In this document: one piece after another, positions 2,028 to 62,160 of the stretch
How positions within the stretch are numbered: the stretch's first letter is position 1
Layout: every line of letters starts with the position of its first letter
Assembly (NCBI GenBank): GCA_026770705.1
Contig: JANJGN010000038.1
Coordinates: 6,448,001 to 6,512,000 of the forward strand
Reading direction: 5' to 3'
DNA from: Isurus oxyrinchus
Lineage: Eukaryota
DNA: 64,000 nucleotides
Program-made: the position numbers and the translations under genes
The notes under the pieces: generated by a model
Database searches by the model: none
What the model was told of the DNA's origin: nothing
The model's input: the letters and a program-made list of their open reading frames with translations, nothing else

Positions 2028-2872
2028 GGTAAATTTTATACTATTTCACTTATTCATAAGTAATTAATCAAAAGCTGTCGCCTCACACTGAAATCCTCAC
2101 GAACCCACATATCGATAACAATATTTACCCTAGAATAAGCAAGCTCTTCTAAGTGCTGGTAGTGGTAAACTTGAAAAGAGCTTCTTTCACAGAATAATAT
2201 GCCTGTAGTTATATTCTACTCTGATTTAATTTTACTGGTTCGACAACTCCTAGGAGTGAAGCTATTTAATTTCAGGACAGAGCTTTTAGAAGGTAAAGTT
2301 GACTAGGTTATTTTAACGAACTTTTTCTCTTAGTTGATGTTATAAGCTAAAATTAAGTTTGAGTGGGTAGGTTTACCATTCCATGTGGAAAAGATTGTAT
2401 AATCATAAACAGATAGGCATAAAACCTCCTGCCAGTTTCTTTATAATCTACTTTACTTCATCCTCCAATGTCAATATCTGCTTCATTAATTCTTCTTCCT
2501 AAAGATACGGTTCTAACTGGAGCTGAGGTTTTTGTACGGCGCTGTCGCCCCTTACTACACGTGTGTACAGCACAGAAGTGTCTGTGAGACTCAAAGCTGA
2601 GATAGTCAGGGGGCTGCTTTTATCCAAGCTTCAACTGACGGCTCTAAATCGACCTTTTTGTTCACCGTTTGTCGACGCCATTATCAGCAACTTTGGGCTC
2701 TGGTTTGGAGGATTAACGTACCAATATATCACAGGGAATGGGATGGTTGTGCGGCAGTGCATCAATATCATTTTCTGTTCAGCCGGAGTCTCTGATGGAT
2801 AAGGTTGTATAACAAAAACAGAATTACCTGGAAAAACTCAGCAGGTCTGGCAGCATCGGCGGAGAAGAAAAG

Positions 2873-2911
2873 AGTTGACGTTTCGAGTCCTCATGACCCT
2901 TCGACAGAACT
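2873..2911 (-). ncRNA. Minimal type I hammerhead ribozyme motif (variant core CUGUCGA)
   Basis: Reverse complement reads AGTT CTGTCGA A GGGTC ATGAG GACTC GAAA CG TC AACT. Stem I is AGTT/AACT and stem II is GGGTC/GACTC. Confidence 0.75.
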
Positions 2912-3739
2912 TGATTTCGAGTCCAAGAAAGAGTTGAAATATAAGCTGGTTTAAGGTGTGTGTGTGTGGGGCGGAGAGAGAGAGAGAGAGAGGTGGTTGT
3001 GTAGACAAACAAGCAGTGATAGAAGCAGATCATCAAAAGATGTCAGCGACAATAGTACAAAAGAACACATAGGTGTTAAAGTTAAAGTTGGTGATATTAT
3101 CTAAACGAATGTGCTAATTAAGAATGGATGGTAGGGCACTCAAGGTACAGCTCTAGTGGGGGTGGAGGGAGCATAAAAGATTTTAAAATATTTAAAAATA
3201 ATGGAAATAGGTGGGAAAATAAAAATCTATAAAATTTATAGGGAAAAAAAAGGGGAAAAGGGGGAAACAGAAAGGGGGTGGGGATGGGGGAGGGAGCTCA
3301 CGACCTAAAGTTGTTGAACTCAATATTCAGACCGGAAGGCTGTAAGGTGCCTAGTCGGAAGATGAGGTGTTGTTCCTCCCCACCCCCTTTCTGTTTCCCC
3401 CTTTTCCCCTTTTTTTTCCCTATAAATTTTATAGATTTTTCTTTTCCCACCTATTTCCATTATTTTTAAATATTTTAAAATCTTTTATGCTCCCTCCACC
3501 CCCACTAGAGCTATACCTTGAGTGCCCTACCATCCATTCTTAATTAGCACATTCGTTTAGATAATATCACCAACTTTAACTTTAACACCTATGTGTTCTT
3601 TTGTACCAATGTCGCTGACATCTTTTGATGATCTGCTTCTATCACTGCTTGTTTGTCTACACAACCACCTCTCTCTCTCCGCCCCACACACACACCTTAA
3701 ACCAGCTTATATTTCAACTCTTTCTTGGACTCGAAATCA

Positions 3740-3778
3740 AGTTCTGTCGAAGGGTCATGAGGACTCGAAACGTCAACT
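3740..3778 (+). ncRNA. Minimal type I hammerhead ribozyme motif (variant core CUGUCGA)
   Basis: AGTT CTGTCGA AGGGTC ATGAG GACTC GAAA CGTC AACT. Confidence 0.75.
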
Positions 3779-4529
3779 CTTTTCTTCTCCGCCGATGCTG
3801 CCAGACCTGCTGAGTTTTTCCAGGTAATTCTGTTTTTGTTTTGGATTTCCAGCATCCGCAGTTTTGTTTTGTTTTTAAGTTTGTATAACGTCTGTTTAAC
3901 CTGCAAGACACAAAGTGAGCACTAGAGCAAAGCCACCAGTTCTAATCATGCCCAACAGGTAACTCCGAAACATAGGAGCAGGTGGATGACTTTCAACTCT
4001 TCAGCCCTGCTCCAAATTCATCTAGTTCTCAATTGGTCTGAAGCCTAAATTTATTTATCCTCCTTAGCCCAATATACCATGATACAATTGTGCTTAGCTA
4101 AGGAACATCTTGAAAATATAGTGAAAAGGTACAAAGAGCACAAACATATATAATAATGAGGCAAGATACCCCTTGAAAAATTAGAGTCTAAATGTGGCAG
4201 GGAACAAGGGGGTCTACAGTGACTGGTGCAAGTTCCGTAGCGACAGAGTTTATCCACGCAATTTGACACACACAACAAAAACTGAGTTTCATTTCTAAAG
4301 GGAGGAAACTGAAAATCAGAAAAGTTGCATTACTGTTACATTGAGACCCGTTGGATCACACGTGAGAATCTCCAACCACAGTTCTAGTCTTCATTTCGAT
4401 AAATTTGTTTTTACTCGCATGACAAGAAATTTGAGATCATAATGGCTAGATATCTTGCAGATGCTGTGTCTCTTATCTCGAGAAATGAGTAAAGTGGGTT
4501 ACACCTGATAAATATTTTTGGGTTACAGA

Positions 4530-5930: not shown

Positions 5931-6927
5931 TCACATCTTCATCATCAAAAGGGGGCTCATAACCATAAGGAAAAGGCCAATCACTGGCAGGGTAAACTTT
6001 TTCTCCCCACCAGGGGTTTCACTGGGGCCAGTGCGTATCAATTGAGGGACAAAGGGAGCTCCTCCTAATCCAGTGGTGACTCCAGTCATAGCTCCATTAA
6101 TACATGGGTACAGCAAATCCTCATAGTAGCACATGCACAACACCCTATAACACCTAATAAAACTAACCCAATTAAAACATCAGCAGCTAACTTTCCCAAC
6201 TGGCGAACCACCCCGTTACTGTAGCCCGCCAGGATTCCTTGTTATAAACACTGCTCAACCTTTCCCCAACTTTCTTTATTTCTCACACTTTATCCATAAC
6301 ATGCTGTTCCAGGTCAATAATATTCTCAGAAACATCAGGCACATAGGCGCAGCATTCTGAGCCTATTATGACACAAGTGCCACCTTTTTCAGCTAGGAGG
6401 AAATCAAGGGCCATTCTATTTTGTTGAGCTGTCAGGCGTAGGGCTAACATTTCAGCAGTGGTGTCTGAAATCTGTTTCTGGGTCTCAATAAAAACATTTT
6501 CCGTCGAATTGGCAAATTTTTCAAGCGCAGCTGCCAGGTTGATAACCTCTCGGGAGTTACGCACAGTTCCACAAGAGGGGATAGCAATCATCCAGCATCG
6601 TTCAGATTTTGAGATGTTACGACGATGGAGACGCAGATGCGGGTGAATATCTGATGCTACAGGGCTGCCAGACAACGAGTGGCTTGGACCCAATCTTCCT
6701 TCCCTTTAATCTTCAGGGCTGTACGAGTTGTTAGCAGCACCAGATAGGGTCCTTTCCACTCTCTCATGCAATTCAGCTGTTGTTTTGCATTGAGGAAAAT
6801 GAGTACAAATCCAACATTCAGTCCGATGAACTTGCAAGGCTACGGCCTGTATTTGTTGAACCACAGAATTGGTATTCCATGCCCCTGCAAGGACCATGCA
6901 GGACAGGATCCAAATCAGAGTCAGCAT
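5931..6927 (-). pseudogene. env: ERV env (gamma-type), disrupted, with very short SU
   Basis: Signal peptide MLTLIWILSCMVLAGA, CWIC motif, basic cleavage site RLHRR, immunosuppressive domain QNRMALDFLLAEKGGTC, CX6CC (CVIIGSECC), and hydrophobic anchor VLIGLVLLGVIGCC near 6130-6180. Contains stops and frameshifts. Confidence 0.92.
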
Positions 6928-6973
6928 TCCGATGGCTCAGTTAAAGTTCTTGCACAAGCACTTCCGTCCGAGG

Positions 6974-7625
6974 TCAGCGTCTGTTTGACGTGCGATGTGT
7001 GGATCCACAAGTGCATCCTTCAATCTTCATGGCTGTATGGGTGGTGAGCAGGACTTGGAAAGGTTCTTCCCATCGAGGTTCCAAACAGTTCTTTCTACTG
7101 AAGGTCTTTACCAGGACTAGGTCCCCGGGCTGGTATTGATGGCAGTCTTCAGTGGTGGGCTTTTTCTGAGCTTCTACTACCTGTATATGTGAGCTCTTGA
7201 GACAGTTACTGTGAGAGCGCATAGTCATGAGCACCAAGGGTAGAGCTTCAGGCCCTTTCAAACTGGTTTCTTCACATAATTTAGCTAGTTTGTTTTTCAG
7301 AATACTATTTTGTCCTGCCATCGCTCCAGTAGACCGGGGGTGGTATGGGCAGGAAAGGTGATGGTTGCATTGTAAGGCCTTCAACAGTTCCTTTATCACT
7401 TCAGCAGTAAAATGAACAATTTTACAACAACAGCATCATTGCATTGGGTGGGATACGCCTCCACCCATCGCAAGAACAAACACACTAGAATTAAAACATA
7501 ATTATATCCCATACATTTAGGCATTTGTATAAAGTCCATTTGTAGGTGTGCAAATGGGCCCCATGGCTGGGGTCCCGTACCAGCAGTCACTGTGGGCGTC
7601 ATACCTAGGTTATGTCATTGACATA
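6974..7625 (-). pseudogene. pol: ERV pol, integrase core and C-terminal domain (class I, gamma/epsilon-like)
   Basis: PFAHLQMDFIQMP...WVEAYPT; PYHPRSTG..NSILKNKLAKL; YQPGDLVLVK...LEPRWEEPFQVLLTT. Frameshifted, with internal deletions. Confidence 0.92.
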
Positions 7626-7699
7626 GGTATGACAGGTATTACTAATATAATTACCTGGAAAAACTCAGCAGGTCTGGCAGCATTGGCGGAGAAGAAAAG

Positions 7700-7738
7700 A
7701 GTTGATGTTTCGAGTCCTCATGACCCTTCGACAGAACT
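7700..7738 (-). ncRNA. Hammerhead motif in the inverted pLTR (core CUGUCGA)
   Basis: Reverse complement: AGTT CTGTCGA AGGGTC ATGAG GACTC GAAA CATC AACT. Confidence 0.65.
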
Positions 7739-10700
7739 TGAGTTTGAATCCAAGAAAGAGTTGAAATATAAGCTGGTTTAAGGTGTGTGGGGGGGGGGGG
7801 GAGGGGGGAGAGAGAAAGAGAGAGACAGAGGTGGAGTGGAGTGTGGTTGTAGGGACAAACAAGCAGTGATAGAAGCAGATCATCAAAAGATGTCAACAAC
7901 ATAGGTGTTAAAGTTAAAGTTGGTGATATTATCTAAACAAATGTGCTAATTAAGAATGGATTTCTCGGACTGCTGTTCCCGTCACATTCTGAAATCCACA
8001 CTCAGTGCCATGCGGCGCCATATGAACACACTCGACCTCTCCCTCCAGCAGCACCGCCGTACCCTTTTTCAAAGCTGCACGTGCCCCCAGTTTCATTTTA
8101 TCCTTCGGCTCATCCGACGCCTCAACAAGAAACTTTTTCTCTTTCTCCCAAGTGCTAAGGAACACAAGCTCCAACAACTCATTGACACCAACACCCATCT
8201 AGTACCCCCCACCCCGGCCTGTCCCTCCGTCCCCACCCCATCTTCCAATCCCAACACCAGCCATGTATTCACTATACCCCCTGACCTTCCCCTCTCCGAT
8301 GCTGAACGTTCAGTGCTCAGCAAAGGACTTAGTTTCATACCCTTACGCCCTCACCTCAATGAATTTCGGGCTCGGCACGATGCTGAACTCTTCTTCTGCC
8401 GTCTTCGTCTCCAGGCTCATTTCTTTGGGCAGGAGTCCTCTCCCAGTTCAACGGATCCTTTGACCCATCTCCAATATTCTCCCTCCACCTGGACCCCTCC
8501 TTCTGGATTCTTACCTTCTCTTGATCTTTTCATTGAGAACTAGCAGCGCGACATTAGTCGTCTCTATTTCTCCGCTCCTCTCACCCATTCTAACCTGTCT
8601 CTCTCTGAACTTACTGCACTCCATTCTTTCAGGTCCAACCCTGACATTGTCATCAAACCCACTGACAAGGGTGGTGCTGTTGTTGTCTGGCGCACTGACC
8701 TCTACCTTGCGGAGGCTGAGCGTCAACTCACAGACACTTCCTCCTACCTTTCCCTGGACCATGACCCCACCACTGAACATCAAGCCATTGTTTCCAGGAC
8801 TGTCACTGACCTCATCTCCTCTGGGAATCTCCCTCCCACAGCTTCCAACCTGATAGTCGCCCAACCTCGGATGGCCCGCTTCTATCTCCTACGCAAAATC
8901 CACAAACAGAACTGCCCCGGTAGACCGATCGTCTCAGCTTGCTCCTGCCCCACAGAACTCATTTCTCGTTATCTTGACTCCCTTCTCTCTCCCCTTGTCC
9001 AGTCCCTTCCCACCTACATCCGTGATTCCTCTGACACCTTACGTCACATCAACAATTTCCAGTTCCCTGGCCCCAACCGCTTCCTCTTCACCATGGACGT
9101 CCAATCCCTCTACACCTCCATCCCCCACCAGGATGATCTGAGGGCCCTTAGCTTCTTCCTCGAACAGAGGCCTGAAAAATCCCCATCCGCAAACTACTCT
9201 CCTCCGTCTGGCTGAACTTGTTCTCACGCTGAACAATTTCTCCTTCAACTCCTCTCACTTCCTCCAAATAAAAGGTGTGGCTATGGGTACCCACATGGGC
9301 CCCAGCTACACCTGTCTCTTTATGGGGTACGTGCAACATTCCTTGTTCCAGTCCTCCTCCGGCCCCCTTCCACAACTTTTTCTCCGGTACATCGATGATT
9401 ACTTCAGTGCTGCTTCATCCTCTCGTCGGGACTTAGAAAAATTTATTGATTTTGCTTCCAATCTCCACCCCTCCATCATTTTCACGTGGTCCATCTCTGA
9501 CACTTCCCTTCCCTTCCTTCACCTCTGTCTCAATCTCTGGTGATAGACTGTCCACCAATATTCATTACAAACCCACCGACTCCCACAGCTACCTCGACTA
9601 CAGCTCCTCACACCCCGCTTCCTGTAAGGACTCCATCCCATTCTCTCAGTTCCTTCGCCTTCGTCGCATCTGTTCTGATGATGCTACCTTCAAAAACAGT
9701 TCCTCTGACATGTCCTCCTTCTTCCTTAACCGAGGTTTTCCACCCACAGTCGTTGATAGGGCCCTCAACCGTGTCCGGCCCATCTCCCGTGAATCTGCCC
9801 TCATGCCTTCTCCTTCCTCCCAGAAACATAATATGCTCCCCCTTGTCCTCACTTATCACCCCACCAGCCTCCGCATTCAAAGGATCATCTCCGCCATTTC
9901 CAGCATGATGCCACCACCAAATACATCTTCCCTGCACCCCCCCGGCGGCATTCCGTAGGGATCATTCCCTCCGGGACACCCTGGTCCACTCCTCCATCAC
10001 CCCCTACTCCTCAACCCCCTCCTATGGCACCTCCCCATGCCCACGCAAAAGATGCAACACCTGCCCCTTCACTTCCTCTCTCCTCACTATCCAAGGGCCC
10101 AAACAATCCTTTCAAGTGAAGCAGCATTTCACTTGCATTTCCCCCAACTTAGTCTACTGCATTCGTTGCTCCCAATGTGGTCTCCTCTACATTGGAGAGA
10201 CCAAACGTAAACTGGGCGACCACTTTGCAGAACACCTACGGTCTGTCCGCAAGAATGACCCAAACCTCCCTGTTGCTTGCCATTTTAACACTCCACCCTG
10301 CTCTCTTGCCCACATGTCTGTCCTCGGTTTGTTGCATTGTTCCAGTGAAGCCCAACGCAAACTGGAGGAACAGCATCTCATCTTCCGACTAGGCACTTTA
10401 CAGCCTTCCGGACTGAATATTGAATTCAACAACTTTAGATCTTGTCCACCCTCCTCCACCCCACCCCCTTTCTGTTTCTTCCCCCTTCCTTTTGTTTTTT
10501 CCAATAATTTATACAGACTTTTCTTTTCCCAAGTATTTCCATTATTTTTAAATCTTTTATGCCCCCCCACCACCACTAGAGCTATACTTTGGGTGCCCTA
10601 CCATCCATTCTTAATCAGCACATTCGTTTAGATAATATCACCAACCTCAACACCTCTGTGTGCTTTTGTTCTTCAGTCTGTGACATCTTTTGATTATCTG

Positions 10701-10808
10701 CTCCTATCGCTGCTTGCTTGTCCCTGCAACCACACCACCCCTCCACTTCTCCCCCCCCCCCCCCACCTTAAACCATCTTATATTTCACCCGTCTTCTTGG
10801 ATTCAACC

Positions 10809-10847
10809 AGTACTGCTGAAGGGTCCCGAGGACTCGAAACGTCAACT
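10809..10847 (+). ncRNA. Hammerhead motif in the PLE 3'UTR (core CUGCUGA)
   Basis: AGTA CTGCTGA AGGGTC CCGAG GACTC GAAA CGTC AACT. Confidence 0.6.
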
Positions 10848-10910
10848 TTTTTCTTCTCCGTCAATGCTGCCAGACCTGCTGAGTTTTTCCAGGTAATTCT
10901 GTTATTGTTT

Positions 10911-11320
10911 AGCATTTATTACCCATCCCCAGGTAAGGGCAGCAGGTTTCCCTCCGTAAAGGACATTAGTGACCCAGATGGGTTTTTACAACAATCTCCA
11001 ATAGTTTCATGGTCACCATTGGACTTTTAATTCCAGATTTTTTTATTACATTCAAAATCAGTAACATTGTGGATCCTGTCAAAGTCCTGGTTCAGTTGTA
11101 AATATATAAAATCCCTCTCCTTCCTCCTGCACTTCCCACCCACTCCCCACTCCCCACCCCCCCTCCACCGCCCACCCACAGCCTCCCTCTCTCTCGCTCT
11201 GCCTCTCTACATAGAGGCCAGGGTCTCATGTAGGCCTTGACTGGGTTGCAGGTTCCCTTCCCTGAAGGACATTAGTGAACCAGCTGTTTATTTATGACAA
11301 TCCAGCAGTTTTCATGGTCT
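10911..11320 (-). mobile_element. Two SINE fragments resembling the SlmI/MetaSINE type (10911-11050 and 11215-11320)
   Basis: Antisense of ...AAAAACCCATCTGGTTCACTAATGTCCTTTAGGGAAGGAAA.... The family name comes from my recollection of the consensus, not from a search. Confidence 0.55.
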
Positions 11321-11551: not shown

Positions 11552-12424
<873 letters not shown>

Positions 12425-12599
12425 TTGGGCTTTTCTCTTACTCACATCCAGGACTGAGGCATGTTCAATAGGTCGGTTTCTGTTGATCTTAATAAATCCC
12501 AGCCCAGTTATAGGGGGTAAATTATGTTATTGAAGCGCTTTGTGTTAAACAGCATATTGATTTTTTTTAGTATCTCTGATACAAGTTAGTGTCCCTCGA

Positions 12600-21020: not shown

Positions 21021-21879
21021 CTGCTCAGTGTTTAACTGGAGTTAATTAGTCATCAGGAAGAGAAGCAGGAACCAGAATGGGCCATGAGACTGATCCCAGG
21101 TTTAACTCAGTTAGAGAGGGAGAGAAGGAAGGAAACCCTGGGAGGTTTGAAGAAACCACCTACACGATCACTCATTAAATCTCCACACAGTAAGTTTTGG
21201 ACACAAGGTTAACATCTGCTATTCTGCCTGGTCGGACAGCGGGTTTCAGATTAATGTTTTGTTACGAGTAATCACTGAAGTGAATGATCAGACATATTGT
21301 CACCTCCAATTGTAGAAATTTGTTAAAAAGATACAGAAAGAACTGTCCAAAACTCTGTTTGGATTTCAGCACAGGGAGGAAGGAGAGTGTGTGGGACAGG
21401 GGTTTGCAGCTTTCAGGGAACAAGAGAGGAAAAACTGTTCTGTAGAAACTAGAATTGTCTGTTCTGAATTTCTATCCTGTTCTTACAATGATGGCTCTTG
21501 TAAACTCCTTTTACAGAGAATTAGAAGGGGAGGATTTTCAGGCAGGAAACTCAAACCAAACATCACATCAAGATCTGACAGAGTCACTCGATTCATCAGG
21601 ACCTGAATATCATCAATTTTGAATGTGGAGGCAGAAATGTTTGTCTGTTCAGTCTGTGGGAAAAGATTTCAAACATCAGTGTGACTGCAAAAGTACCGAA
21701 ACACACACACCCGAGTGAGAGTGTTCTAGTGAACTGATTGTAGAAAGAGCTTTAACCAGTTATAAAGCCTGAAATAACATCACACCATTCACAGCGGGGA
21801 GAAACTGTACACGTGTTCTCTGTGTGGACAAGGCTTCAACTGATCATCAAAGTTGGAGAGACACAGGGACAGATGGACC

Positions 21880-22506
21880 ATGGAGAAACCATGGAAATGT
21901 GAGGACTGTGGGAAAGGATTCAATTATCCATCCAGACTGGAAATCCATCGACGCAATCACACTGGGGAAAGGCCGTTCACGTGTTCTCAGTGTGGGAAGG
22001 GATTCAATCATTTATCCAGCCTGCTGACACACCAGCGAGTTCACACTGGAGAGAGACCATTCACCTGCTCCGAGTGTGGGAAGGGATTCACTCAGTTATC
22101 CAACCTGCTGATGCACCAGCGAGTTCACACTGGAGAGAGACCATTCACCTGCTCCAAGTGTGGGAAGGGATTCACTCAGTCATCAAGCCTAGTGAAACAC
22201 CAGAGAGTTCACACTGGGGAGAGACCGTTCACCTGCTCCGAGTGTGGGAAGGGATTCACTCAATTATCAATCCTACTGGCACACCAGCGAGTTCACACTG
22301 GTGAGAGACCGTTCACCTGCTCCGAGTGTGGGAAGGGATTCACTCAATTATCAATCCTACTGGCACACCAGCGAGTTCACACTGGTGAGAGACCGTTCAC
22401 CTGCTCCGAGTGTGGGAAGGGATTCACTCAGTTATCCAGCCTGCTGAAACACCAGCGAATTCACACAAGGAGAGGCGGTTCAGCTGAACTTCCTGTGGAA
22501 AAGTGA
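21880..22506 (+). CDS. C2H2 zinc-finger protein, 208 aa, 7 tandem fingers, no effector domain
   Basis: Kozak ACCATGG start ([14 protein letters not shown]), canonical TGERPF linkers and all Cys/His intact in 7 fingers. A frameshift after finger 7 leaves about 3 decayed fingers to about 22720. AATAAA at 22865-22870. Acceptor TTTTACAG near 21516. Confidence 0.85.
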
Positions 22507-23445
22507 TTCAGCCTTATTCCACCTCAGTGTACACCAGTGAATTCACGTTGGAGCGAGACTGTCCAACTGCTCTGAATGTGGAAAGGGATTCACTCATTTA
22601 TCCAACCTGCTGAGACACCAGCAAGTTCACACTGAGGAGAGGCTGTTCACTTTCTCCTAATGTAGGAAGGGTTTCACTTGGTCACCCCACCTGCTCAGAC
22701 ACCAGCGAGTTCACAAGTGTGTGCAGGTGTTGGATTCTGCTGTTATTGCTGCTGTTAATCACATCCAGAACTGAACCATGTTCATTCTGACAGTTGTGGT
22801 TTGTTTCTATTGATGTTAATAATCCCTGTAACTGGGCTGAAGTTTAATGTCTTGATGTCTGTTAAATAAATCAGCTTTGTTTCAAACTCTCAGAATGTCG
22901 TGTCCTTGATTTCTCCAGGATAAGAGGAGACTGGTTGATGTCCTGTTCCCAACTGCTCCATTTTTGGTTCTTTTCTCCTTTCTAACCCTTGATTCTTTCA
23001 GTTCTCAGACCTTTGATTACTCTCATGGAAAAGTCCCAACTCCCCAAACCTCCTAGAGAGCCTTAGGATCCAGGGAAGTATCTGTATTAAAAACAGAAAA
23101 TGCTGGAAATAACTGATACTTTTCCAAGTGCCAATTGATTTTCTCCCAGATTATTGTCTCCAGCCTTTCCCCACCACTGATGTGAAGCTGATTGTCCTGG
23201 AATTGCTGTGTTTTTGAACAGGGGTGTAACATTTACAATCTGTCAGTCCTTTGACACCACTACTGTATAAGGAGGATTGGAAGATTGTGACCAGAGTCTC
23301 CACAAGTTCCATCTGAAGGATGCTGTCTCTGACAGTGCAGCAGTCCCTCAATGTCACCCTGGAGTGTCAGCCTAGATAATGTGCTCAGGTTTATTAATAT
23401 TTCCTCTTGTTATTGATGTGGATCATTAAGAAACAATGGACTCTT

Positions 23446-23678: not shown

Positions 23679-24213
23679 GTCCCATCTCCCGACACTCTGC
23701 CCCATCTCCTGATATGGAATTCATTGCCACAGAAGACGGTGGAGGCCAGCTCATTGAGTGTATTTAAGACCGAGATAGATAGGTTCTTGATTGGTAAAGG
23801 GATCAAAGGTTACGGGCAGAAGGGAAAATGGGATTGAGAAACTTATAAGCCATAATTGAACGGCAGGGCAGACTCAACGGGCCGAATGGCCTAATTTCTG
23901 CTCCTATGTCTTATGGTCTTATGACACCCTGTCCCCATCTCCCGACACTCTGCCCCATCTCCTGACACCCTGCGCCCATCTCCTGACATTCTGTCCCCAA
24001 CTCCCGACACTCTGCCCCCATCTCCCGACACTCTGCCCCCATCTCCCGACACTCTGCCCCCATCTCCCAACACTCTGCCCCATCTCCCGACACTCTGTCC
24101 CCATCTCCTGACACCCTGCCACCATCTCCCTACACCCTGCCACCATCTCCCGACACTCTGCCACCATCTCCCGACACTATGCCCCATCTCCTGACACTCT
24201 GCCCCATCTCCCG
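23679..24213. repeat. 19-20-bp minisatellite (CCCATCTCCCGACACTCTGC)n interrupted by a CR1 tail
   Basis: About 2 units before 23714 and about 14 units at 23923-24213. Confidence 0.95.
23714..23922 (+). mobile_element. 5'-truncated young CR1 (HER1-like) 3' tail
   Basis: Ends gggccgaatggcctaatttctgctcctatgtcttatggtcttatg. Reverse complement of 51070-51280. Confidence 0.9.
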
Positions 24214-28314: not shown

Positions 28315-28860
28315 ATAGGAAAAAGGAGGAGTAGGCCGTTCGGCCCCTTAAGCCTGCTCTGCCATTTAATAAGATCATGGCTGACCTCATAGTAACCTGA
28401 AATCTGTACCCCACCTATCCCCAATAACCTATCACCCCCTTGATTACCAAGAATATATCCACCATTGCCTTAAAAATATTCAAAGGCTTTGCTTCCACAG
28501 TCTTTTCAGGAACAGAGTTCCAAAGTTTCACGGCACTCTGAAAGAAAAAGAAATCGCCTCATCTCTGTTTTAAATAGGTGACCCCTTGTTTTTAAACAAC
28601 GATCCCGAGTTCTCAATTCTCTCACAAGAGGTAACATCCTCTCCAAATCCACGCTGTCAAGTACCCTGAGGATCTTATATGTTTCACTGATCAGGTAAAG
28701 TAAAGCTAAATACTGCAGATGCTGGTTATCTGAAATAAAAACAGAAAATGCTGGAATTCTCAGCAGATCTGGGAGTGATTGTGGAGATAAAGACATGGTT
28801 TTCATTTCAGGTCTGTAACCTTTCATCAGAACTCCATTGCATCTGAAATGATAATTATGC
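28315..28860 (-). mobile_element. CR1 3' end (28315-28690) followed by a PLE tail with a degenerate hammerhead (28801-28833)
   Basis: ETYKILRVLDSVDLERMLPL..RTR...L (CR1). Reverse complement AGTT CTGATGA AAGGT TACAG ACCT GAAA. Confidence 0.7.
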
Positions 28861-32483: not shown

Positions 32484-32565
32484 GTAGTCATGGCTGAGTG
32501 GTTAAGGCGATTGAGTGAAAAATCATTGGTGTTACACTGCGCAGGTTCGAGTCCTGTCAACTGCA
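32484..32565 (+). pseudogene. tRNA-Ser pseudogene (82 nt)
   Basis: gtagtcatggctgagtggttaaggcgattgag...gcgcaggttcgagtcctgtcaactgca. A and B boxes are retained; the anticodon arm is disrupted. Confidence 0.85.
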
Positions 32566-37198: not shown

Positions 37199-37272
37199 GT
37201 CTCTGTGATGTAATTGGTCAGTGCATTCGGCTGCTAACCGAAAGGTTGGTGGTTCGAGACCAACCAGGGACG
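37199..37272 (+). pseudogene. tRNA-Asn-derived gene with GCT anticodon, probably a pseudogene
   Basis: 74 nt. Acceptor stem GTCTCTG/CAGGGAC and anticodon stem TTCGG/CCGAA are intact; the loop is CT GCT AA. The D-stem is decayed and the T-stem has one mismatch. Confidence 0.85.
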
Positions 37273-42519: not shown

Positions 42520-42812
42520 AATTGATTTAATAATCTTACATCTTGACCCTAAATCTCCAGTCATCATCGGATCATAGAAAATAATTTTACATACAAAAAT
42601 ATAGACACCCAATGGCAGACCTGTCACCCAGCATTCAGAGCAGGAGAGAAGGTGCCCTATCCCGAGAGCTAGGGCCCTGCGCATGCGCATTACGGAACGT
42701 AATTGGCATCTGCGCTTTACGGTCTTCTGTCTGAGCATGCGTAGTGCTGTCCTGTGACCGGAGCCGCAGAGAGCGGGTTAAAACATGGCGTCTCCAGCAG
42801 AATAACAGAGTT
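42520..42812 (+). promoter_or_regulatory. ZNF promoter cassette, truncated in exon 1 by a PLE
   Basis: Paralogous to 46990-47260. NRF1 TGCGCATGCGCA at 42678-42689. YY1-like AACATGGCG at 42782-42790. Confidence 0.75.
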
Positions 42813-43918
42813 AAAGACAAAACAAAACTGCGGATGCTGGAAATCCAAAACAAAAACAGAATTACCTGGAAAAACTCAGCAGGTCTGGCAGCATCGGCGG
42901 AGAAGAAAAGAGTTGACATTTCGAGTCCTCATGACCCTTCGACAGAACTTGATTTCGAGTCCAAGAAAGAGTTGAAATATAAGCTGGTTTAAAGTGTGTG
43001 TGTGGGGCGGAGAGAGAGAGGTGGTTGTGTAGACAAACAAGCAGTGATAGAAGCAGATCATCAAAAGATGTCAGCGACAATGGTACAAAAGAACACATAG
43101 GTGTTAAAGTTAAGTTGGTGATATTATCTAAACGAATGTGCTAATTAAGAATGGATGGTAGGGCACTCAAGTTACAGCTCTAGTGGGGGTGGAGGGAGCA
43201 TAAAAGATTTTAAAATATTTAAAAATAATGGAAATAGATGGGAAAAGAGAAATCTATAAAATTTATAGGGAAAAAAAAGGGGGAAAAAGGGGGAAACAGA
43301 AAGGGGGTGGGGATGCAGGAGGGAGTTCACGACCTAAAGTTATTGAATTCAATATTCAGACCGGAAGGCTGTAAGGTGCCTAGTCGGAAGATGAGGTGTT
43401 GTTCCTCCAGTTTGCGTTGGGCTTCACTGGAACAATGCAGCAAGCCAAGGACAGACATGTGGGCAAGAGAGCAGGGTGGAGTGTTAAAATGGCAAGCGAC
43501 AGGGAGGTTTGGATCATTCTTGCGGACAGACCGCAGGTGTTCTGCAAAGCGGTCGCCCAGTTTACGTTTGGTCTCTCCAATGTAGAGGAGACCACATTGG
43601 GAGCAACGAATGCAGTAGACTAAGTTGGGGGAAATGCAAGTGAAATGCTGCTTCACTTGAAAGGAATGTTTGGGCCCTTGGACGGTGAGGAGAGAGGAAG
43701 TGAAGGGGCAGGTGTTACATCTTTTGCGTGGGCATGGGGTGGTGCCATAGGAGGGGGTTGAGGAGTAGGGGGTGATGGAGGAGTGGACCAGGGTGTCCCG
43801 GAGGGAGCGATCCCTACGGAATGCCGATAAGGGGGGTGAAGGGAAGATGTGTTTGGTGGTGGCATCATGCTGGAGATAGCGGAAATGGCGGAGGATGATC
43901 CTTTGAATGCGGAGGCTG
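42812..43918 (-). mobile_element. 5'-truncated young PLE: open linker + GIY-YIG frame (43327-43918), 3'UTR and hammerhead (42911-42949)
   Basis: Nearly identical to 1-750 and 2811-3380. Reads SLRIQRIILRHF...GLLYIGETKR...GLNIEFNNFRS. Confidence 0.95.
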
Positions 43919-44109
43919 GATGTTTGATCATTCAATTCAGTCATTACTCGTGACAAAACATTAATCTGAAACCCTCTGACCGACCATACAGAATAGCTGA
44001 CGTTAACCTTGTGTCTAAAACTTACTGTGTGGAGTTTAATGAGCGATCATGAAGGTGGTTTCTCCAAACCTCCTAGGGTTTCCTTCCTTCCTTCTCTCCC
44101 TCTCTAATT

Positions 44110-44355
44110 CCATTCACCTGCTCCGAGTGTGAGAAGGGTTTCACTCGGTCATCTGACCTGCTAACACACCAGCGACTTCACACTGGGGAGAGGCTGTTCA
44201 GCTGTACTTCTTGTGGAAAGAGATTCAGGTCTTCATTCAGCCTCATTGTACACCAGCGACTTCACACTGGGGAGAGGCCATTCACCTGCTCCAAGTGTGG
44301 GAAGGAATTCACCCAGTCATCCAACTTGCTGAGACACCAGCGAGTTCACAAGTGA
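44110..44355 (+). pseudogene. 3' remnant of a ZNF gene (3 fingers + shared 3'UTR, with a CR1 tail inserted at 44390-44600)
   Basis: [24 protein letters not shown]...HQRVHK TGA(44353-44355). Confidence 0.85.
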
Positions 44356-44854
44356 CTACAGAAGTTGGATTCTGCTGTTATTACTGCTGTGTCTGGAATT
44401 CGCTGCCAGAGGAGGTTGTGGAAACAGCTACGATAGTGATGTTTAAGAGGCAGCTTGCCAAATACATGAATAGAATGGGAATAGAGGGATACGGACCCCG
44501 GAAGTGCAAAATGTTTTAGTTGACGGGCAATATGATCGGCACAGGCTTGGAGGGCCGAAGGGCCTGTTCCTGTGCTGTACTTTTCTTTGTTCTTTGTTAA
44601 TCACATCCAGGGCTGAACCATGTTCATTCTGAAAGTTGGGGTTTGTTTCTGCTGATGTTAAAAATCCCTGTTACTGGGCTGGAGTTTAATATTCTGGATC
44701 ATTTGCTGGTTGTGTTCTCGGGGCTGCAGTGTCCCTTTAAGAACCGCTGTCTCTGATCCTTCCCCATAATTCAGGAACTCTCATTAGAAATTAGTTTACC
44801 ACAAGAGGGGGAGCCAATCCAATAGTGATATTGTCACTAGACTAGTAATTCAGA

Positions 44855-46170
44855 GATAAAAACAGAAAATACTGGAAAATCTCAGCTGGTCTGACATCAT
44901 CTGTGGAGTGAGAAACACAGTTAATGCTTTGAGTCTGTTTGACCCTTCTTCAGAGCTAAAGAGAAGTGGAAATGTGACAAAATGTATACTGTTTTAAGAT
45001 GGTGGTTGCGGGGGTGGAGCAGGTGAAGCTGGATCGAGGGCCAGCGATAGGTGGGGCTAAGGAGAGATTGACAAAGATGTCATGGACAAAATGAAGACGA
45101 TGTAAAAGGGAATAAAACATGAATAAATGAATAAAAATGACAATAAGTGGATAAAAAATAAAATAAAATTTTTTTAATGGGTGAAAACGGGAGGAGGATA
45201 GAGGAGAGAGTAGATGCCATGAAGTTGTTGAACTCGATGTTAAATCCAGAAGGCTGTAAAGTGCCTAATCGGAAGAGGAGGTGCCGTTCCTCCAGTTTGC
45301 GTTAAGATTCAATGGAACATTGCAGCAGGCCAAGGACAGACATGTGGGCATGAGAACAGGGTGGTGTGTTGAATTGGCAAGCGACAGGGAGGTCTGTGTC
45401 ATGATTGTGGACAGACCAAAGGTGTTCCTCAAAGCAGTCACCCTGTCTGCGTTTGGTCTCTCCAATGTAGAGGAAACCGCATTGGGAGCAGAAAATGCAG
45501 TAGACTAAATTGAGGGAAATGCAAGTGAAGTGCTGCTTCTCTGAAGAGGAGTATTTGGCCCCTTGGACAGTGAGAAAGGAGTTGGTAAAGGGGCTGGTGT
45601 TGCACCTTTCACGATTGCATGCGAAGGTGCCTTGAGAAGGGGATGAGGTGTTAGGAGTGATGGAGGAGTTGACCAGGGTGTCCCAGAGTAGTCCCTATGA
45701 AATGCTGATGGGGTTGGTGAGGGGAAGATGTGTTTGGTGGTGGCATCATGCTGGAGTTGGCAGAAGTGATGGAGGATGATCCTCTGAATGTGGAGGCTGG
45801 TGGGGTGAAAAGTGAGGACAAGGGAGACCCTATCATGGCTCCTTCCTTAGTGACTGTCTCCGTCTGACTTACCCCGTGTGGATTCAATTGAAGTTGCATC
45901 CCTCATGTTTTGAATCCACCCAGGAAGACAGGTATCTCCGGGACATAGAATGCTCCTCACACTGCTGTTCTCACCTCACATTGAGATCCACACTCAGTGC
46001 CATGCACCACCGTATGTACACACTCGATCTTTCCCTCCAGCAGCACCGACCCATCCAATCTCAAAGCTCTCCTTAACGCCAGTTTCATTTATTTATCACT
46101 TCCAGAACCATGATTGGGTTGCTCTCCCCCTCACTTTTCCCCCACCAGCCTCCGCTTTTAAAGGATCACA
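44855..46170. mobile_element. Older PLE: 3' part on minus (44855-45840) joined to an N-terminal part on plus (45845-46075) and a thumb fragment
   Basis: GIY-YIG remnants on minus. Canonical CTGAAGA hammerhead core at 44919-44957 (-). Plus strand reads ...LRSTLSAMHHRMYTLDLSLQQHR, matching 7990-8060. Confidence 0.85.
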
Positions 46171-48073: not shown

Positions 48074-49019
<946 letters not shown>

Positions 49020-49379
49020 CTGCAGGGATTGGATTTTGCTGTTATTGCTGCTGTTAGTCACATCCAGGACTGATAGTCAGATAGTATTAGCTTTGATTCT
49101 GCTGATATTAACAACCCTATAACTGGCTGGAGTTTAATTTTCTGGATCTGTCACTGATTATCTGAGCTGCAGTGTCCCTTTTTAAAAGCACCATCTGTGA
49201 TCTTTCCTCTTAATTCAAGAACTTGATTACAATAAAATTATGAATTTTTACTTCAATCCTAAACTGACCTTTGGAGCAAAGACTACAATTCAGTGTCTGA
49301 GAGGTTCCACTGATTAACATCTCCAGTTAGAGAGTGCTGATTAATCCTTGCTGACAATTCTTACTGACTTGTACATTCC

Positions 49380-51069: not shown

Positions 51070-54000
51070 TAAGACCATAAGACATAGGAGCAGAAATTAG
51101 GCCATTCGGCCCATTGAGTCTGCTCTGCCATTTAATCATGGCTGATAAGTTTCTCAATCCCATTCTCCTGCCTTCTCCCCGTAACCTTTGATCCCCTTAC
51201 CAATCAAGAACCTATCTACCTCAGTCTTAAATATACTCAATGACCTGGCGTCCACAGCCTTCTGTGGCAATGAATTCCATAGATTCGCCACTCTCTGGCT
51301 AAAGATGTTTCTCCTCATCTCTGTTCTAAAAGGTCTTCCCTTTACTCTGAGGCTGTGCCCTCATGTCGTAGTCTCTCCTACTAATGGAAACATCCTCCCC
51401 ACGTCCACTCTATCCAGGCCTTTCAGTATTCTGTAAGTTTCAATCAGATCCCCCCTCATCCTTCTAAACTCTATCGAGTATAGACCCAGAGTCCTCAAAG
51501 TTACTCATATGTTAAGCCTTTCATTCCTGGGATCATTCTCGTGAACCTCCTCTGGACCCTCTCCAGGGCCAGCACATCCTTCCTGAGATATGGGGCCCAA
51601 AATTGCTCACAATATTCTAAATGTAGTCTGACCAGAGCCTTTTAAAGCCTCAGCAGCATATCCCTGCTTTTATATTCTAGTTCTCTCAAAATAAATGCCA
51701 ACATTGCATTTGCCAACCTAACTATGAACTCAACCTGCAAGTTAACCTTTAGAGAATCCTGGACTAGGACACCCAAGTCCCTTTGCACTCCAGATTTCTG
51801 AATTCTCTCCCCATTTAGAAAATAGTCTATGCTTCTATTCTTCCTACCAAAGTGCATGACCTCACACTTCCCCACGTTGTATTCCATCTGCCACTTCTTT
51901 GCCCATTCTCCTAACCTGTCCAAATCCTTCTGCAGCCTCCCCACCTCCTCAATACTACCTGTCCCTCCACCTATCTTTGTATCATCTGCAAACTTAGCCA
52001 GGGTGCCCTCAGTTCCTTCATCTAGATCATTAATGTATAAAGTGAAAACTTGTGGTCCCAACACTGACTCCTGCGGAACTCCACTAGTCACCGGCCGCCA
52101 TCTTGAGAAGGACCCCCTTATCCCCACTCTCTGCCTCCTGCCAGACAGCCAATCTTCTATCCATGCTAGTACTTTGCCTCTAACACCATGGGCTCTTATC
52201 TTACTGAGCAGCCTCCTGTGAGGCACCTTGTCAAAGGCCTTCTGGAAGTCCAAGTAGATAACATCCATTGGCTTTCCTTTGTCTAACCTGCTCGTTACCT
52301 CCTCAAAGAATTTTAACAGATTTGTCAGGCATGACCTCCCCTTGATGAAACCATGCTGACTTTGCCCGATTTTACCATGCACTTCCAAATATTCTGAAAT
52401 CTCATCCTTAATAATGGACTCTAAAATCTTACCAACGATCGAGGTCAGGCTAATTGGGCTATAATTTCCCGTCTTTTGCCTCACTCCCTTCTTAAACAGG
52501 GGGGGTTACCTTAGCAATTTTGCAGTCCTCTGGGACCTCCCTGACTCCAGTGATTCCTGAAAGATCGCCACTAACGCCTCCACTATCTCTTCATATCTCC
52601 TTCAGAACTCTGGGGTATAATTCATCTGGTCCAGGTGATTTATCCACCTTCAGACCTTTCAGTTTTCCTAGCACCTTCTCCTTGGTAATGGCCACCATAC
52701 TCACCTCTGCCCCCCGACTCTCTTGAACTTTGGGGATGTTACTCGTGTCTTCCACCGTGAAGACTGATGTAAAGTACCTATTCAGTTCATCCGCCATTTC
52801 TTTGTTCCCCACTACTAATTCTCCAGTGTCATTTTCCAGCAGCCCAATGTCCACTTTTGCCTCTCTCTTAACCTTTATATATCTAAAAACACTCTTGCAA
52901 TCTTCTTTTATATTACTGGTTAGTTTACCCTCATATTTAATCTCCTCCCTCATTTCTTTTTTAGTTGTCCTCTGTTGGTCTTTGCAGGCTTCCCAATCCC
53001 CTGGTTTCCCACTGCTCTTCGCCGCATTGTATGCTTTCTCTTTAGCTTTTATGCTGTCCCTGACTTCCCTTGTCAGCCATGGTTGCCTTGTCCTCCCTTT
53101 AGTATGCTTCTTCTTCCTAGGGATGAATTTTTGCTGTGTCTCCCAAATTACTTCCAGAAACTCCTGCCATTGCTGTTCCACTGTCTTTCCTGCTAGGTTC
53201 ATCTCCCAGTCAATTCTGGCCAGCTCCTCCCTCATGCTGCTGTATTTGATTTTATTCAACTATAATACCGTTACATCTGATTTCAGCTTTTTCCTCTCAA
53301 ATTTCAGGGTAAATTTTATCATAATATGGTCCTAAGGGTTCCTTCACCTTAAGCTCCCTTATCAAATCTGCCTCATTACACATCACTAAATCTAGAATTG
53401 CCTGTTCCCTAGTGGGCTCCACCACAAGCTGCTCCAAAAAGCCATCTCGTAGACATTCTACAAATTCCTTTCCTTGGGATCGACTACCAACCTGATTTTT
53501 CCAGTCTACTTGCATATTGGAATCCCCCATGATCACTGTAACCTTGCTTTTCTTGCATGCCTTTTCTATCTCCTGGTATATCTTGTGTCCCACATCCTGA
53601 CTACAGTCCGGAGGCCATAACTCCCATTATGTTTTCTTTACCTTTTAAGTTCTTCAACTCTACCCACACAGATTCTACATCTTCTGACCCTACTTCATTT
53701 CTTGCTATCGATTTAATTTCATTTCTTACTAACAAAGCAACCCCACCCCTCTGCCAAACTGCCTATCTTTTCGATAGGATGTATATCCTTGGATATTTAG
53801 CTCCCAGTCCTGATCTCCTTGCAGCCATGTCTCCGTGATGCCCATCACATCATACCTGCCAATTTCAATCTGCGCCACAAGCTCATTTACCTTATTTCGT
53901 ATACTGCGTGCATTCAGAAACAACTCCTTCAGTCTTATATTTCCCTTCCCCTTTCTCATTGTCGTCCCTTTATCTGATGTGCTTGAAGTTAGATTGCTAG

Positions 54001-54120
54001 CCCTTTCCAAACACTCTGTCCTATTTTGTGTTCTGGGGACTTTAATAGCCTCTCCTGGGCTCTCCTTTCTTTTCAGTTTTTTCATAATTTTCCATGAAGT
54101 TGGATCCACCCACCATACGT
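51070..54120 (-). mobile_element. CR1 (HER1-like) LINE with nearly complete but frameshifted ORF2 (APE endonuclease + RT)
   Basis: LNARSIRNK..GITETWL, VIMGDSN, LDLVMCNE (APE). NYSPISLTS, QHGF..GRSCLTNL, LDFQKAFDKVPH, GVPQESVLGP, KFADDTK (RT). (TCTTATG)-type tail. Confidence 0.97.
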
Positions 54121-54620
54121 TAACCTGCTGCTTTGTTTCCCATCCGCTCCACGTCTACTTTGTCTGTCTCCTTTAGCATCTTATATAACTCAATTAGATC
54201 TCCTCTCATACTTCTAAACCCTAGCAAGTATAGGCATAAACTGCTCAATCTCTCCTCAGTAAACAAGCCCCACATCTCTGGAATCAATCTAGTGAACCGT
54301 CTCTGAGCCTCCTCCAATGCAACTACATCCTTCCTCAAGTAAGGGGACCAAAACTGTGCACAGTAATCCAGGTGCGATCTCACCAATGCCTTGTACAGTT
54401 GCAGCAACACTCCCCTATTTTTATACTCTATTCCTTTAGCAATAAATGACAAAATTCCAATTGCCTTCCTTATTGCCTGCAGTACCTGCACACCAGCTTT
54501 CAGTGATTCATGCACAAGGACACCCAGATCCCTCTGCACTGGTGCATTCTGACGTTTCTCTCCATTTAAATAATAAGTCGCCTTTTTATTCTTCTGACCA
54601 AAATGGATAACCTCACACTT
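54120..54620 (-). mobile_element. Second CR1 ORF2 C-terminal fragment
   Basis: QRDLGVLVHESLK...LYKALVRSHLDYCAQFWSPYLRKD. Confidence 0.9.
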
Positions 54621-55131
54621 ATGTAGAGAGATGTAGCTCTATTAAGTCCATCTTCTTTACTCCCGCTCCTACTACCCCGTTCTCTTCTTTTCTCTCTCTC
54701 TCTCAGACAGTGGAGTTGAAGCCCAAGATCAGCCATGCTCATTTCGAATGGTGGAGGAGCTCAATGAACCATATGGTTTATTCCGGTTCCTATCTGTTAT
54801 CTTAAGGAGGCCAGTGTCTTGTGTAGGCCCAGACTGGGTGGCAGGTTCCCTTCCCTGAAGGACATTAGTGAACCAGCTGTTTATTTATGACAATCCAGCA
54901 GTTTTCATGGTCACTTTCTCCTCGTGCCGGCCCCACAAATTCCCAGATTCATTCAGCTCAATTTCACAATCTGCCTTTGTGTTTTTGTGGGTTCTCTCTC
55001 ACTCCCTTTTTCTGTTTTAAATCAATTTCACAGGGTATTAGGAGGGGAGGATTTGCAGTCGGGAAACTGAAACCAAACATCACATCTGGATCTGAAGGAG
55101 TCGCCCAATTTATCATAAACTGATTTTGAAC

Positions 55132-55915
55132 ATGAAGGGAAAAAGCACTGTTCAAAGTGGGGAGAAACCATGGAAATGTGGCGGCTGTGAAGAGGGATTC
55201 AGATGCCCATCTGAGCTGGAAACTCATTGGCGCACTCACACTGGGGAGAGACCGTTCACCTGCTCCGAGCGTGGGAAGGGATTCACTCGATCGTCCAACC
55301 TGCTGACACACCAGCGAATTCACACTGGGGAGAGACCATTCACCTGCTCCAAATGTGGGAAGGGATTCATTCACTCATCCGACATGTTGCAACACCAACG
55401 AGTTCACACCTCGGAGACTGTTCACCTGCTCTGAGTGTGGGAAGGGATTCAATCAGTCATCTGACCTGCTGAGACACCAGCGAGTCCACACTGGGGAGAG
55501 ACCGTTCACTTGCTCTGAGTGTGAGAAGGGTTTCACTCGGTTGTCTGACCTGTTGACACACCAGCGAGTTCACAATGGGAAGAAACCATTCACCTGCTCC
55601 CAGTGTGGGAAGGGATTCACTCACTCATCTAACCTGCTGAGACACCAGCGAGTTCACACTGGGGAGAGACCCTTTACATGCCCAGACTCCAGCAAGTGTT
55701 ACAAAAGTTCCAGGGAACTGATGCATCATCAACGTGTTCACACTGACGAGAGACCGTTCAGGTGCTCTCACTGTGGGGCTGGGTTCAGACGTTCATCTCA
55801 TCTCACTGCACACCAGCGAGTTCACACTGAGGAGAGGCCATTCACCCGCTCCCAGTGTGGGAAGGGATTCACTCAGTTATCTAACCTGCTGAGACACCAG
55901 CAGGTTCACACATAA
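55132..55915 (+). pseudogene. Tandem C2H2 zinc-finger gene, 9 fingers, with one frameshift (about 55410) and three Cys losses; paralogue of 11552-12424
   Basis: ORFs 55126-55434 and 55355-55915. Substitutions CSER, CPDS and RSQC. Shares the flanking SINE, acceptor and L2 with the 11.5-kb copy. Confidence 0.9.
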
Positions 55916-56297
55916 AGACAGTGATTGGATTTTACTTTTAATTACATTCAGGAGTGAACGATGATCATTAGGGTCTGTTTCTCTGATGTTAAGTTATAGG
56001 CATTAATGTCACGTTATAGGCATTAATGTTCTGGACAAAAGTCAAATAAATCGGCTTTGTATTACACACACAATATTGAGTCTTTTTAAGATCACAAGTA
56101 AATACAATGAGTTTTCCTGTTAATTCCACCCGGGACTGAACGATTTTCATTGGGGAGTATTTCTGCTGATGTTCGTAACTTCCAGCCCAGTTATAGGTGT
56201 TAATATTCTGGATAAAAATCAAATAAATCAGCTTTGTGTAAAACACACTGTCTGGTGAATCTTGTTAATCTCTCTAACACAAGTTAGTTCCTTTTGA

Positions 56298-61054: not shown

Positions 61055-62160
61055 GTGTTTAAAATAAATCTGATTTATTTCACATTTATCCAGAATATTA
61101 AACTTCAGTTCAGTTACAAGGATTATGAACATCAACAGAAACAAACTCTAACTGTCAGAATGGTTCAGTTCTGGATGTGGTTAACAACAGCAATAACAGC
61201 AGAATCCAATTCCTGCAGCCGTTTGTGAACTCACTAGGGTGTCAATAGGTGAGACGACTGAGTGAATCTCCTCCCACACACATAGCAGGTGAATAGCCTC
61301 TCCCCAGCATGAATGTGTTCGTGTCTCAGCACCCATTTTGCTTTTAAATCTCGGCTCATGGTCAGAACTTTGAAAAGCTTTCTGACCCATGTAAACAAGT
61401 CGATAGGTATATATGAAAGCAAAATACTGCATATGTTGGAAATCTAAAATTATAAACAGAAAATGCTGGAAAAGCTCAGCAGGTCGGACAGCATCTGTGG
61501 AGAGAGAAACAGAGTTAACGTTTCAAGTCAGTATGAATCCTCTTCAGAACTAATGGGTATGGAGGTGGGATGAAGGAGTGAATCTCTCCCAAACAGAACA
61601 GATGAATGGTCTCCTCCCCAGTGTGAGTGCACTGATGAACACTGAGATCACATGATCACTTGAACCCAGTCCCACAGAGAGAGCACTTAAACAGGCTCTG
61701 GTCAGTGTGAACACGTTGATGGAACATCAGCTCCACAGAACTTTTATAACTCTTTCTGCAATCTACACATTTAAAAGATCTTCCATCAGTGAGAATCCCT
61801 CCTCACATATGGAGCAGGTGAATGACCTCTCCCCAGTGTGAACTCACTGGTGTTGCAGCAGGATGGACAATCACCTGAACCTATACCCGCAGTGAGAGCA
61901 GATGAATGGAGTGGAACCGGAATGAATGCACTGGTGAACCATCAATGAATGTGGGTTTTTAAAGCTCTTGTCACAGTGTAAACAGGTGTTTCAGCAGGAT
62001 GGAAGAACTAGTGAATCGACTTCCACACTTGGAGCAGGTGAATGGCCTCTCCCCAGTGTGAATTCGCTGGTGCACAGTGAGATTAAGTGATTGCCTGAAC
62101 CCAGTCCAACAGAGAGAGCATCTGAGCAGTCTGTTGTCAGTATGAACACATACTGATATA
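61055..62160 (-). pseudogene. Decayed C2H2 zinc-finger gene + shared 3'UTR; PLE tail inserted at 61420-61551
   Basis: [37 protein letters not shown]. The 3'UTR is the reverse complement of the 22715-22880 type. Confidence 0.85.
61513..61551 (-). ncRNA. Minimal hammerhead motif with canonical core
   Basis: Reverse complement: AGTT CTGAAGA GGATTCA TAC TGACTT GAAA CGTT AACT. Confidence 0.65.

Follow-up and report, generated by a model that had tools for sequence, protein, structure and literature searches.

The main lineage of a Penelope-like element (PLE) has replaced the core A6 of its minimal hammerhead motif with U, and has kept multiplying, to more than 100,000 copies. The reading that we favor, to which we give a probability of about 0.6 by analogy with A6 changes measured in other hammerheads, is that U6 would make a further-weakened ribozyme, which is unneeded for integration and whose fold has been retained.

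The motif, its copies and the host element

The window is the whole stretch of 64 kb (64,000 nucleotides) that was analyzed, and the motif under study lies at its positions 3740-3778. Hammerhead numbering and the rules for TATA spacing are general knowledge. The parts of the motif, its surroundings and the related copies in the window are the following.

3740-3778, + strand: minimal type I hammerhead fold, from sequence and predicted folding
3740-3743/3775-3778, + strand: stem I of this motif
3744-3750, + strand: core C3-A9, with U6 at 3747 and C7 at 3748
3751 and 3752-3756/3762-3766, + strand: bulged A, and stem II
3767-3770 and 3770-3773, + strand: GAAA, and palindromic ACGU
After C3774, + strand: predicted cut site
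3708-3714, + strand: TATA-like box, 32 nt 5′ of motif base 1, with a putative promoter role
3740, + strand: putative transcript start (+1); short copies and the arms of fold-backs start here
3714-3736, + strand: partial repeat of downstream motif sequence, latest subfamilies only
3795-3880, + strand: conserved downstream hairpin (predicted fold) and 3′ tail, with two 3′ end clusters
3377-3880, + strand: fold-back insertion, right arm, with 3′ untranslated region, motif and long tail
2814-3379, - strand: fold-back insertion, left arm, with motif 2873-2911 and short tail
7643-7961, - strand: pseudo-LTR piece with CUGUCGA motif 7700-7738
7961-10917, + strand: 5′-truncated and frame-broken element with motif 10809-10847 (C6 side branch)
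42805-43919, - strand: young 5′-truncated copy with endonuclease end, 3′ region, motif 42911-42949 and long tail
1-2045, - strand: 5′-truncated copy that extends beyond the start of the window, with remnants of reverse transcriptase (RT) and GIY-YIG coding sequence
28801-28833, - strand: older tail, canonical CUGAUGA core
44919-44957, - strand: older tail, canonical CUGAAGA core
61513-61551, - strand: older tail, canonical CUGAAGA core

The copies listed in the preliminary description were found as claimed, with CTGTCGA cores at 3744 (+), 2877-2907 (-), 7704-7734 (-) and 42915-42945 (-), a CTGCTGA core at 10813 in the 10809 copy, and canonical cores in the older tails at 28817-28829 (-), 44941-44953 (-) and 61517-61547 (-). 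Stems I and II and the GAAA-NN-UC segment were also as described, with CAUC in the 7700 copy and UGUC in the 42911 copy, both of which are CpG-type changes. The sequences of the four CUGUCGA copies stand, but the window holds three U6C7 events and not four, since the 2873 and 3740 motifs lie on the two mirrored arms of a single fold-back insertion (2814-3880), which has a long tail on one side only and a 9-bp target duplication (2805-2813 and 3881-3889). An Rfam search of the window gave no hammerhead match, canonical-core tails included. Searches based on CUGANGA skip the most numerous young hammerhead-like motif in the genome.

Other features of the window were recorded alongside. At 7643-10917, the similarity between the inverted left arm (U6C7 subfamily) and the right end of the body, which belongs to the C6 branch, is only about 76%, and a target duplication was not evident; this may be a chimeric insertion, or a young copy that landed on an older one. 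The broken frames at 6283-7435 (-) resemble remnants of retroviral envelope and integrase, and LINE-like RT and endonuclease remnants lie at 51642-54638 (-). Arrays of C2H2 zinc fingers, with repeats of 84 bp, form a cluster at 11687-12450, 21793-22850, 44060-44390, 48255-49120, 55120-55950 and 61100-62150; tandem arrays are present at 63051-64000 (34-bp units) and 23902-24193 (21-bp units); and a tRNA match above the Rfam cut-off was obtained at 37199-37272, with a weaker one, below the cut-off, at 32484-32565.

Judged from its sequence, the host element is an endonuclease-bearing (EN+) PLE of the Neptune/Nematis type, as that type is defined in PMC8557442, an assignment made from the linker and the domain layout. 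Locus L061 carries a single 918-aa frame with an RT and, at its C terminus, a GIY-YIG endonuclease; the protein matches RVT_1 above the cut-off (E 7e-8) and GIY-YIG just under it (E 9e-4), and contains the DKG, YIDD and YIGET motifs. The GIY-YIG match is preceded by a CX4CxxC linker, and a CX2-5CxxC linker between RT and endonuclease defines the Neptune clade (PMC8557442). At the same locus the motif recurs every 3,353 and 3,340 bp, i.e., in tandem units that form pseudo-LTRs, and the inverted arms of PLEs, and their optional tail of 30-40 bp, are represented in the fold-back insertion at 2814-3880, which has a tail on one side. The single RT and GIY-YIG frame, the Cys linker, the tandem units, the inverted 5′-truncated arm and the one-ended tail are thus shared with the Neptune/Nematis EN+ elements described in PMC8557442, from which this element differs in its non-canonical hammerhead core. 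Counted from motif base 1, the long frame has its first Met at +175, so the motif is non-coding in this element.

The motif itself has stems I and II, a bulge after A9, the G10.1-C11.1 pair and a palindromic helix III, and 93% of the cells in its alignment are paired, compared with 2-56% in slid controls. In its short stem I, the bulged base after A9, G10.1-C11.1, the lack of a loop III, the palindromic C-G 15.2/16.2, its position in the pseudo-LTR and the motif pairs on opposite strands it resembles the minimal hammerheads of metazoan PLEs described in PMC4209133, and it differs from them by a U or C at position 6. Because the layout is that of the PLE minimal hammerhead but the A6 of the CUGANGA core is absent, we class it as a variant.

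Fixation and age order of position 6

Exact matches were counted with one 16-base frame in the 4.97-Gb genome. The CUGUCGA 16-mer gave 80,397 matches, against 17 for a reversed control, hence the motif is not a product of chance. In the same frame CUGUUGA gave 34,474 matches and CUGANGA 3,588, exact counts being ones that under-represent old decayed families, and the CUGANGA count omitting A6 families with a different stem II letter. CUGUUGA is a former master state; the possibility that it is mere CpG decay of CUGUCGA was ruled out, since the opposite CpG decay product had only 2,712 matches. In the youngest context, 52,365 of 52,646 matches had U6 and 281 any other letter, and in the first 100 of these 281 the commonest letter was C, a mutation-like spectrum as expected for mutation after insertion. 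Intact 918-aa elements also have U6 motifs. The claim that the change was present in the active master element is borne out by these results, and the consensus of the young copies has U6 rather than A6.

The order of the changes was read from a tree of flanks only, for which the 90 of 209 anchored copies that had 220 nt or more upstream were aligned, and the motif was masked. This tree is a ladder, with A6 copies basal, U6 copies above them and a single U7C change near the top; two A6 copies fall inside the U6 part, A6 and U6 are mixed near the transition, and five A/U changes are found in total. The order is therefore A6, then CUGUUGA, then CUGUCGA, with a C6 side branch that includes the 10809 copy. 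U6 arose before U7C and is present through five consecutive copy groups, so that, contrary to what was proposed at the outset, it is not limited to the youngest subfamily. Half the mean pairwise distance is 0.049 for the oldest of the U6 groups and declines to 0.014 for the youngest; for two A6 groups it is 0.053 and 0.054. Position 6 was also tallied against age in 780 kb fetched regardless of the motif, which gave 89 profile hits, 54 of them readable at this position, and the result agreed: U6 was found in 11 of 11 copies less than 3% from the nearest panel copy, at 3-6% divergence there were 11 U, 2 A and 1 C, at 6-10% 5 U, 7 A and 1 C, and beyond 10% all 16 copies had A6.

The C6 pattern has 3,235 filtered genome matches, and 23 of the first 100 listed have, as judged by eye, the side-branch flank of the 10809 copy. 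This copy is not a random mutant: its diagnostic upstream flank is the one shared by those 23 C6 matches, and 6 of 7 fetched copies that bear the flank have C6.

Two ideas about the effect or cause of the change were considered. A copy-number burst caused by U6 is unsupported, since A6 families are similarly abundant. A6-U7-G8 forms an upstream AUG, but its loss was ruled out as a selective cause, because an AUG at +18 was acquired later in this lineage, which has another at +56. Separately, in the 3′ region (3380-3740) the summed backbone of the U6 branches amounts, by eye, to about 0.4-0.5 changes per site, far more than the decay of the oldest U6 copies (about 0.05), although misalignment of simple sequence may inflate the backbone figure.

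Copy ends, promoter geometry and conservation

Ends were mapped in 106 copies anchored downstream of the motif. Thirty-five of these start within 8 nt of stem I base 1 (binomial P 2e-17 for the pile-up at +1 against a uniform spread), only one starts at the cut site, and 41 extend more than 100 nt upstream of the motif. Where a start was called 40-100 nt upstream, it may in some cases reflect a break of the alignment in simple sequence. Of 17 copies in another 180 kb, also untargeted, 5 start at motif base 1 and 2 at the cut. Filtered junction matches across the genome numbered 3,419 for the motif start, taken as two positions, against 193 for the cut site, the motif-start count having used the stricter filter; when the first 100 of these 193 were inspected by eye, only about 20 were joined to unrelated DNA. 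As copies start at motif base 1 and hardly any at the cut, the templates look uncut, and the copies were likely made from uncut RNA, as far as their ends can tell; a circular re-ligated template would hide cut ends. In an older family of mixed A6 and U6, 20 of 4,578 ends lie at the cut. Since A6 families are also without a cut-site peak and are abundant, A6U made no visible change in the copying route.

The 3′ ends fall into two clusters, of 44 and 49 copies among the 106, with some 30 nt between them; copies end about 100 and 130 nt downstream of motif base 1. At the other side, the TATA-like box stands 26-32 nt upstream of the motif in every subfamily, and 27-32 nt in nearly all; it reads TATAAA or TATATA in the oldest. 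At the first-listed places, many insertions were 110-140 bp pieces or tight fold-backs that run from motif base 1 to the tail, and the fold-backs are often joined through stem I complementarity. Contigs assembled from sequencing runs cover the motif region, the RNA status of several of them being uncertain; an intron at CAG/GTAATT (+85) was considered and dropped, because the contigs of four runs listed no such joint, and several A6 copies do not have the GT.

Changes of the master lineage were scored as majority letters in 48 hand-grouped copies of six age groups, and not as reconstructed ancestors. After A6U, the ten other core columns (C3, U4, G5, G8, A9, G12, A13, A14, A15.1 and U16.1), which are present together with an NUH site, did not change in any of the six groups (0/10); one of 20 stem columns did, from A-U to G-U, and four of seven tolerant columns did, namely N7, two in loop II and N17 (U to C). 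Of the 356 columns outside the motif, 83 changed; Fisher tests on these counts gave P 0.002 and 0.009. The cut triplet went from GUU to GUC after A6U. An apparent switch of G8 was an artefact of CpG-decayed copies, and disappeared in groups rebuilt without them. Nevertheless, the 51 columns beyond the near flank of the motif are about as conserved as the motif (4/51 changed; P 0.65), none of the 22 columns of the TATA block (3695-3716) changed across groups, and 30 of 314 windows of 30 columns outside the motif are equally quiet. Given this downstream conservation, retention of the motif is no proof of catalysis, and a promoter or protein-binding constraint could explain it. Covariation in the stems is weak: in 20 aligned copies the covariation score was not above shuffles (143/500), one pair varies between A-U, G-U and G-C, and no pair had changed on both sides relative to the commonest pair.

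When the isolated 39-mer was folded, pairing probabilities were 0.97-0.99 for stem II and 0.2-0.5 for stem I; in longer contexts the hammerhead was predicted to be a minor state, with a probability of stem I of at most 0.1. These predictions ignore protein and dimer effects, and the palindromic ACGU allows a dimer helix.

The partial repeat upstream of the motif is present at about 3714-3736, as claimed, but the suggestion that it offers an alternative pairing, which would rebuild an active, permuted core, is very improbable. The repeat contains GAAA, UC and the 3′ strand of stem II, and a pairing with the 5′ strand of stem II is predicted for it. However, it appears only in the last subfamilies, long after A6U, and earlier U6 copies, in their tens of thousands, do not have it; it lies upstream of the putative transcript start, offers neither a helix III nor a partner for stem I, and would still use the U6 strand. 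In predicted folds it competes with the normal fold for stem II and lowers hammerhead pairing. In these last subfamilies the promoter-proximal spacer grew stepwise more like the sequence 3′ of the spacer, a convergence on downstream sequence that suggests template switching, and the same change increased the distance of the TATA-like box upstream of the motif, from 29 nt to 32 nt.

Readings of the U6 core

The literature bears on the effect of A6U by analogy. A natural A6C hammerhead is reported to cleave at less than 0.1 per min (PMC3088659), with very low rates in Mg2+ and near-normal rates in Mn2+ (PMC7151607), values that concern C6 in another hammerhead and not U6 in a minimal motif; in a full pairwise mutational scan of a canonical hammerhead, mutants of the CUGA region were all low (PMC9901934). 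Minimal PLE hammerheads are described as already weak and in need of dimers or protein (PMC4209133, PMC11167929). On this analogy A6U is likely to slow self-cutting. The preliminary description had left a choice between a functional core variant and an attenuated ribozyme, and the latter fits better, because published A6 changes lower cleavage and the copies start at base 1 and not at the cut.

Two further systems are also among the closest known. The phage Bcep176 hammerhead (PMC3088659, PMC7151607) likewise has a natural pyrimidine at position 6 while the other core bases are retained; it is a single phage motif whose slow, Mn2+-favored cleavage was measured, whereas here U6 is found in a minimal retrotransposon motif of more than 100,000 copies, known from sequence alone. 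The Poseidon element PAc of Anolis carolinensis, according to PMC11167929, inserts uncut RNA, starts reverse transcription internally at two sites and has a hammerhead that needs protein. The present element resembles it in two 3′ end clusters downstream of the hammerhead, in the use of uncut RNA as a template (here a deduction) and in the lack of ends at the cut site. In PAc the canonical core overlaps the start codon; here the first Met is the distant one described above, and the protein has a CX4CxxC linker.

The geometry suggests how a slow core could be tolerated. RNA polymerase II would start at stem I base 1, behind the TATA-like box, and reverse transcription would start at two internal places downstream of the cut site, as measured in the Anolis element (PMC11167929), so that it would have to cross the cut site to reach the body of the element. 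Cut RNA could then not template a body-containing copy unless re-ligated, and, being useless as a template, would make a slow core of little cost to the element, or even a help. The remaining core and stems would probably be kept for the fold, which may serve slow dimer- or protein-assisted cutting, or protein binding.

The main competitor of this reading is that the motif is a dead relic, in which A6U ended cleavage and the first 100 nt were kept as core promoter DNA or as a site for protein binding or priming. We consider it unlikely, though the least so of the alternatives. It would account for the non-hammerhead columns downstream and the TATA block being as conserved as the core, and for the hammerhead being a predicted minor state in longer contexts; position 6 drifted on to C in the side branch and A6 was not restored in any master seen. 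Furthermore, Naiad elements are reported to thrive without canonical hammerheads (PMC8557442) and the D. virilis promoter to be internal (PMC2377424). However, a relic would not be expected to confine its changes within the 39 nt to N7, loop II, N17 and one wobble, i.e., to places that a hammerhead tolerates (P 0.002), nor to have gone from GUU to GUC at its cut triplet after A6U. The selectively retained core could also belong to a fully working variant, rescued in the cell by protein, dimer pairing through the palindromic ACGU or Mn2+, with the cut RNA re-ligated into circles or degraded and therefore absent from genomic ends, and the protein-assisted cleavage of the Anolis element (PMC11167929) and the rescue of A6C by Mn2+ (PMC7151607) provide precedents. 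We regard this as distinctly improbable, because a third of the copies span an intact cut site, running from the tail exactly to +1, and because no second mutation rescued CUGA mutants of a canonical hammerhead (PMC9901934). The further-weakened ribozyme with a retained fold is therefore the reading that we prefer.

A natural change of A6 is known from one phage. A6 was present in all 44 motifs compared, of the 56 aligned in PMC4209133, where the search pattern required A6, and the core variant described there by Cervera and De la Pena (2014) is U3-A8. Our search of literature listings found no description of U6 in a retroelement, and Lunse et al. (2017), on PLE hammerhead variants, may list variants of position 6.

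The role of the hammerhead in PLEs is debated: cutting or circularizing of the RNA has been proposed, yet one element inserts uncut RNA and other clades have no hammerhead. Here the transcript would begin with the motif, which would lie upstream of the reverse-transcription start, and the dated natural series of A6, U6, U6C7 and C6, together with an intact protein, makes the need for cleavage directly testable. More speculatively, and with a good deal of doubt on our part, position 6 might be a tuning knob that PLE lineages have turned repeatedly, in which a change from A to a pyrimidine would keep the fold and throttle the cutting, given that the cut site must be crossed during reverse transcription, and a slow motif at the capped 5′ end might act as a delayed, protein- or metal-gated decapping switch. 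If so, the A6, U6 and C6 subfamilies would constitute a natural dose series.
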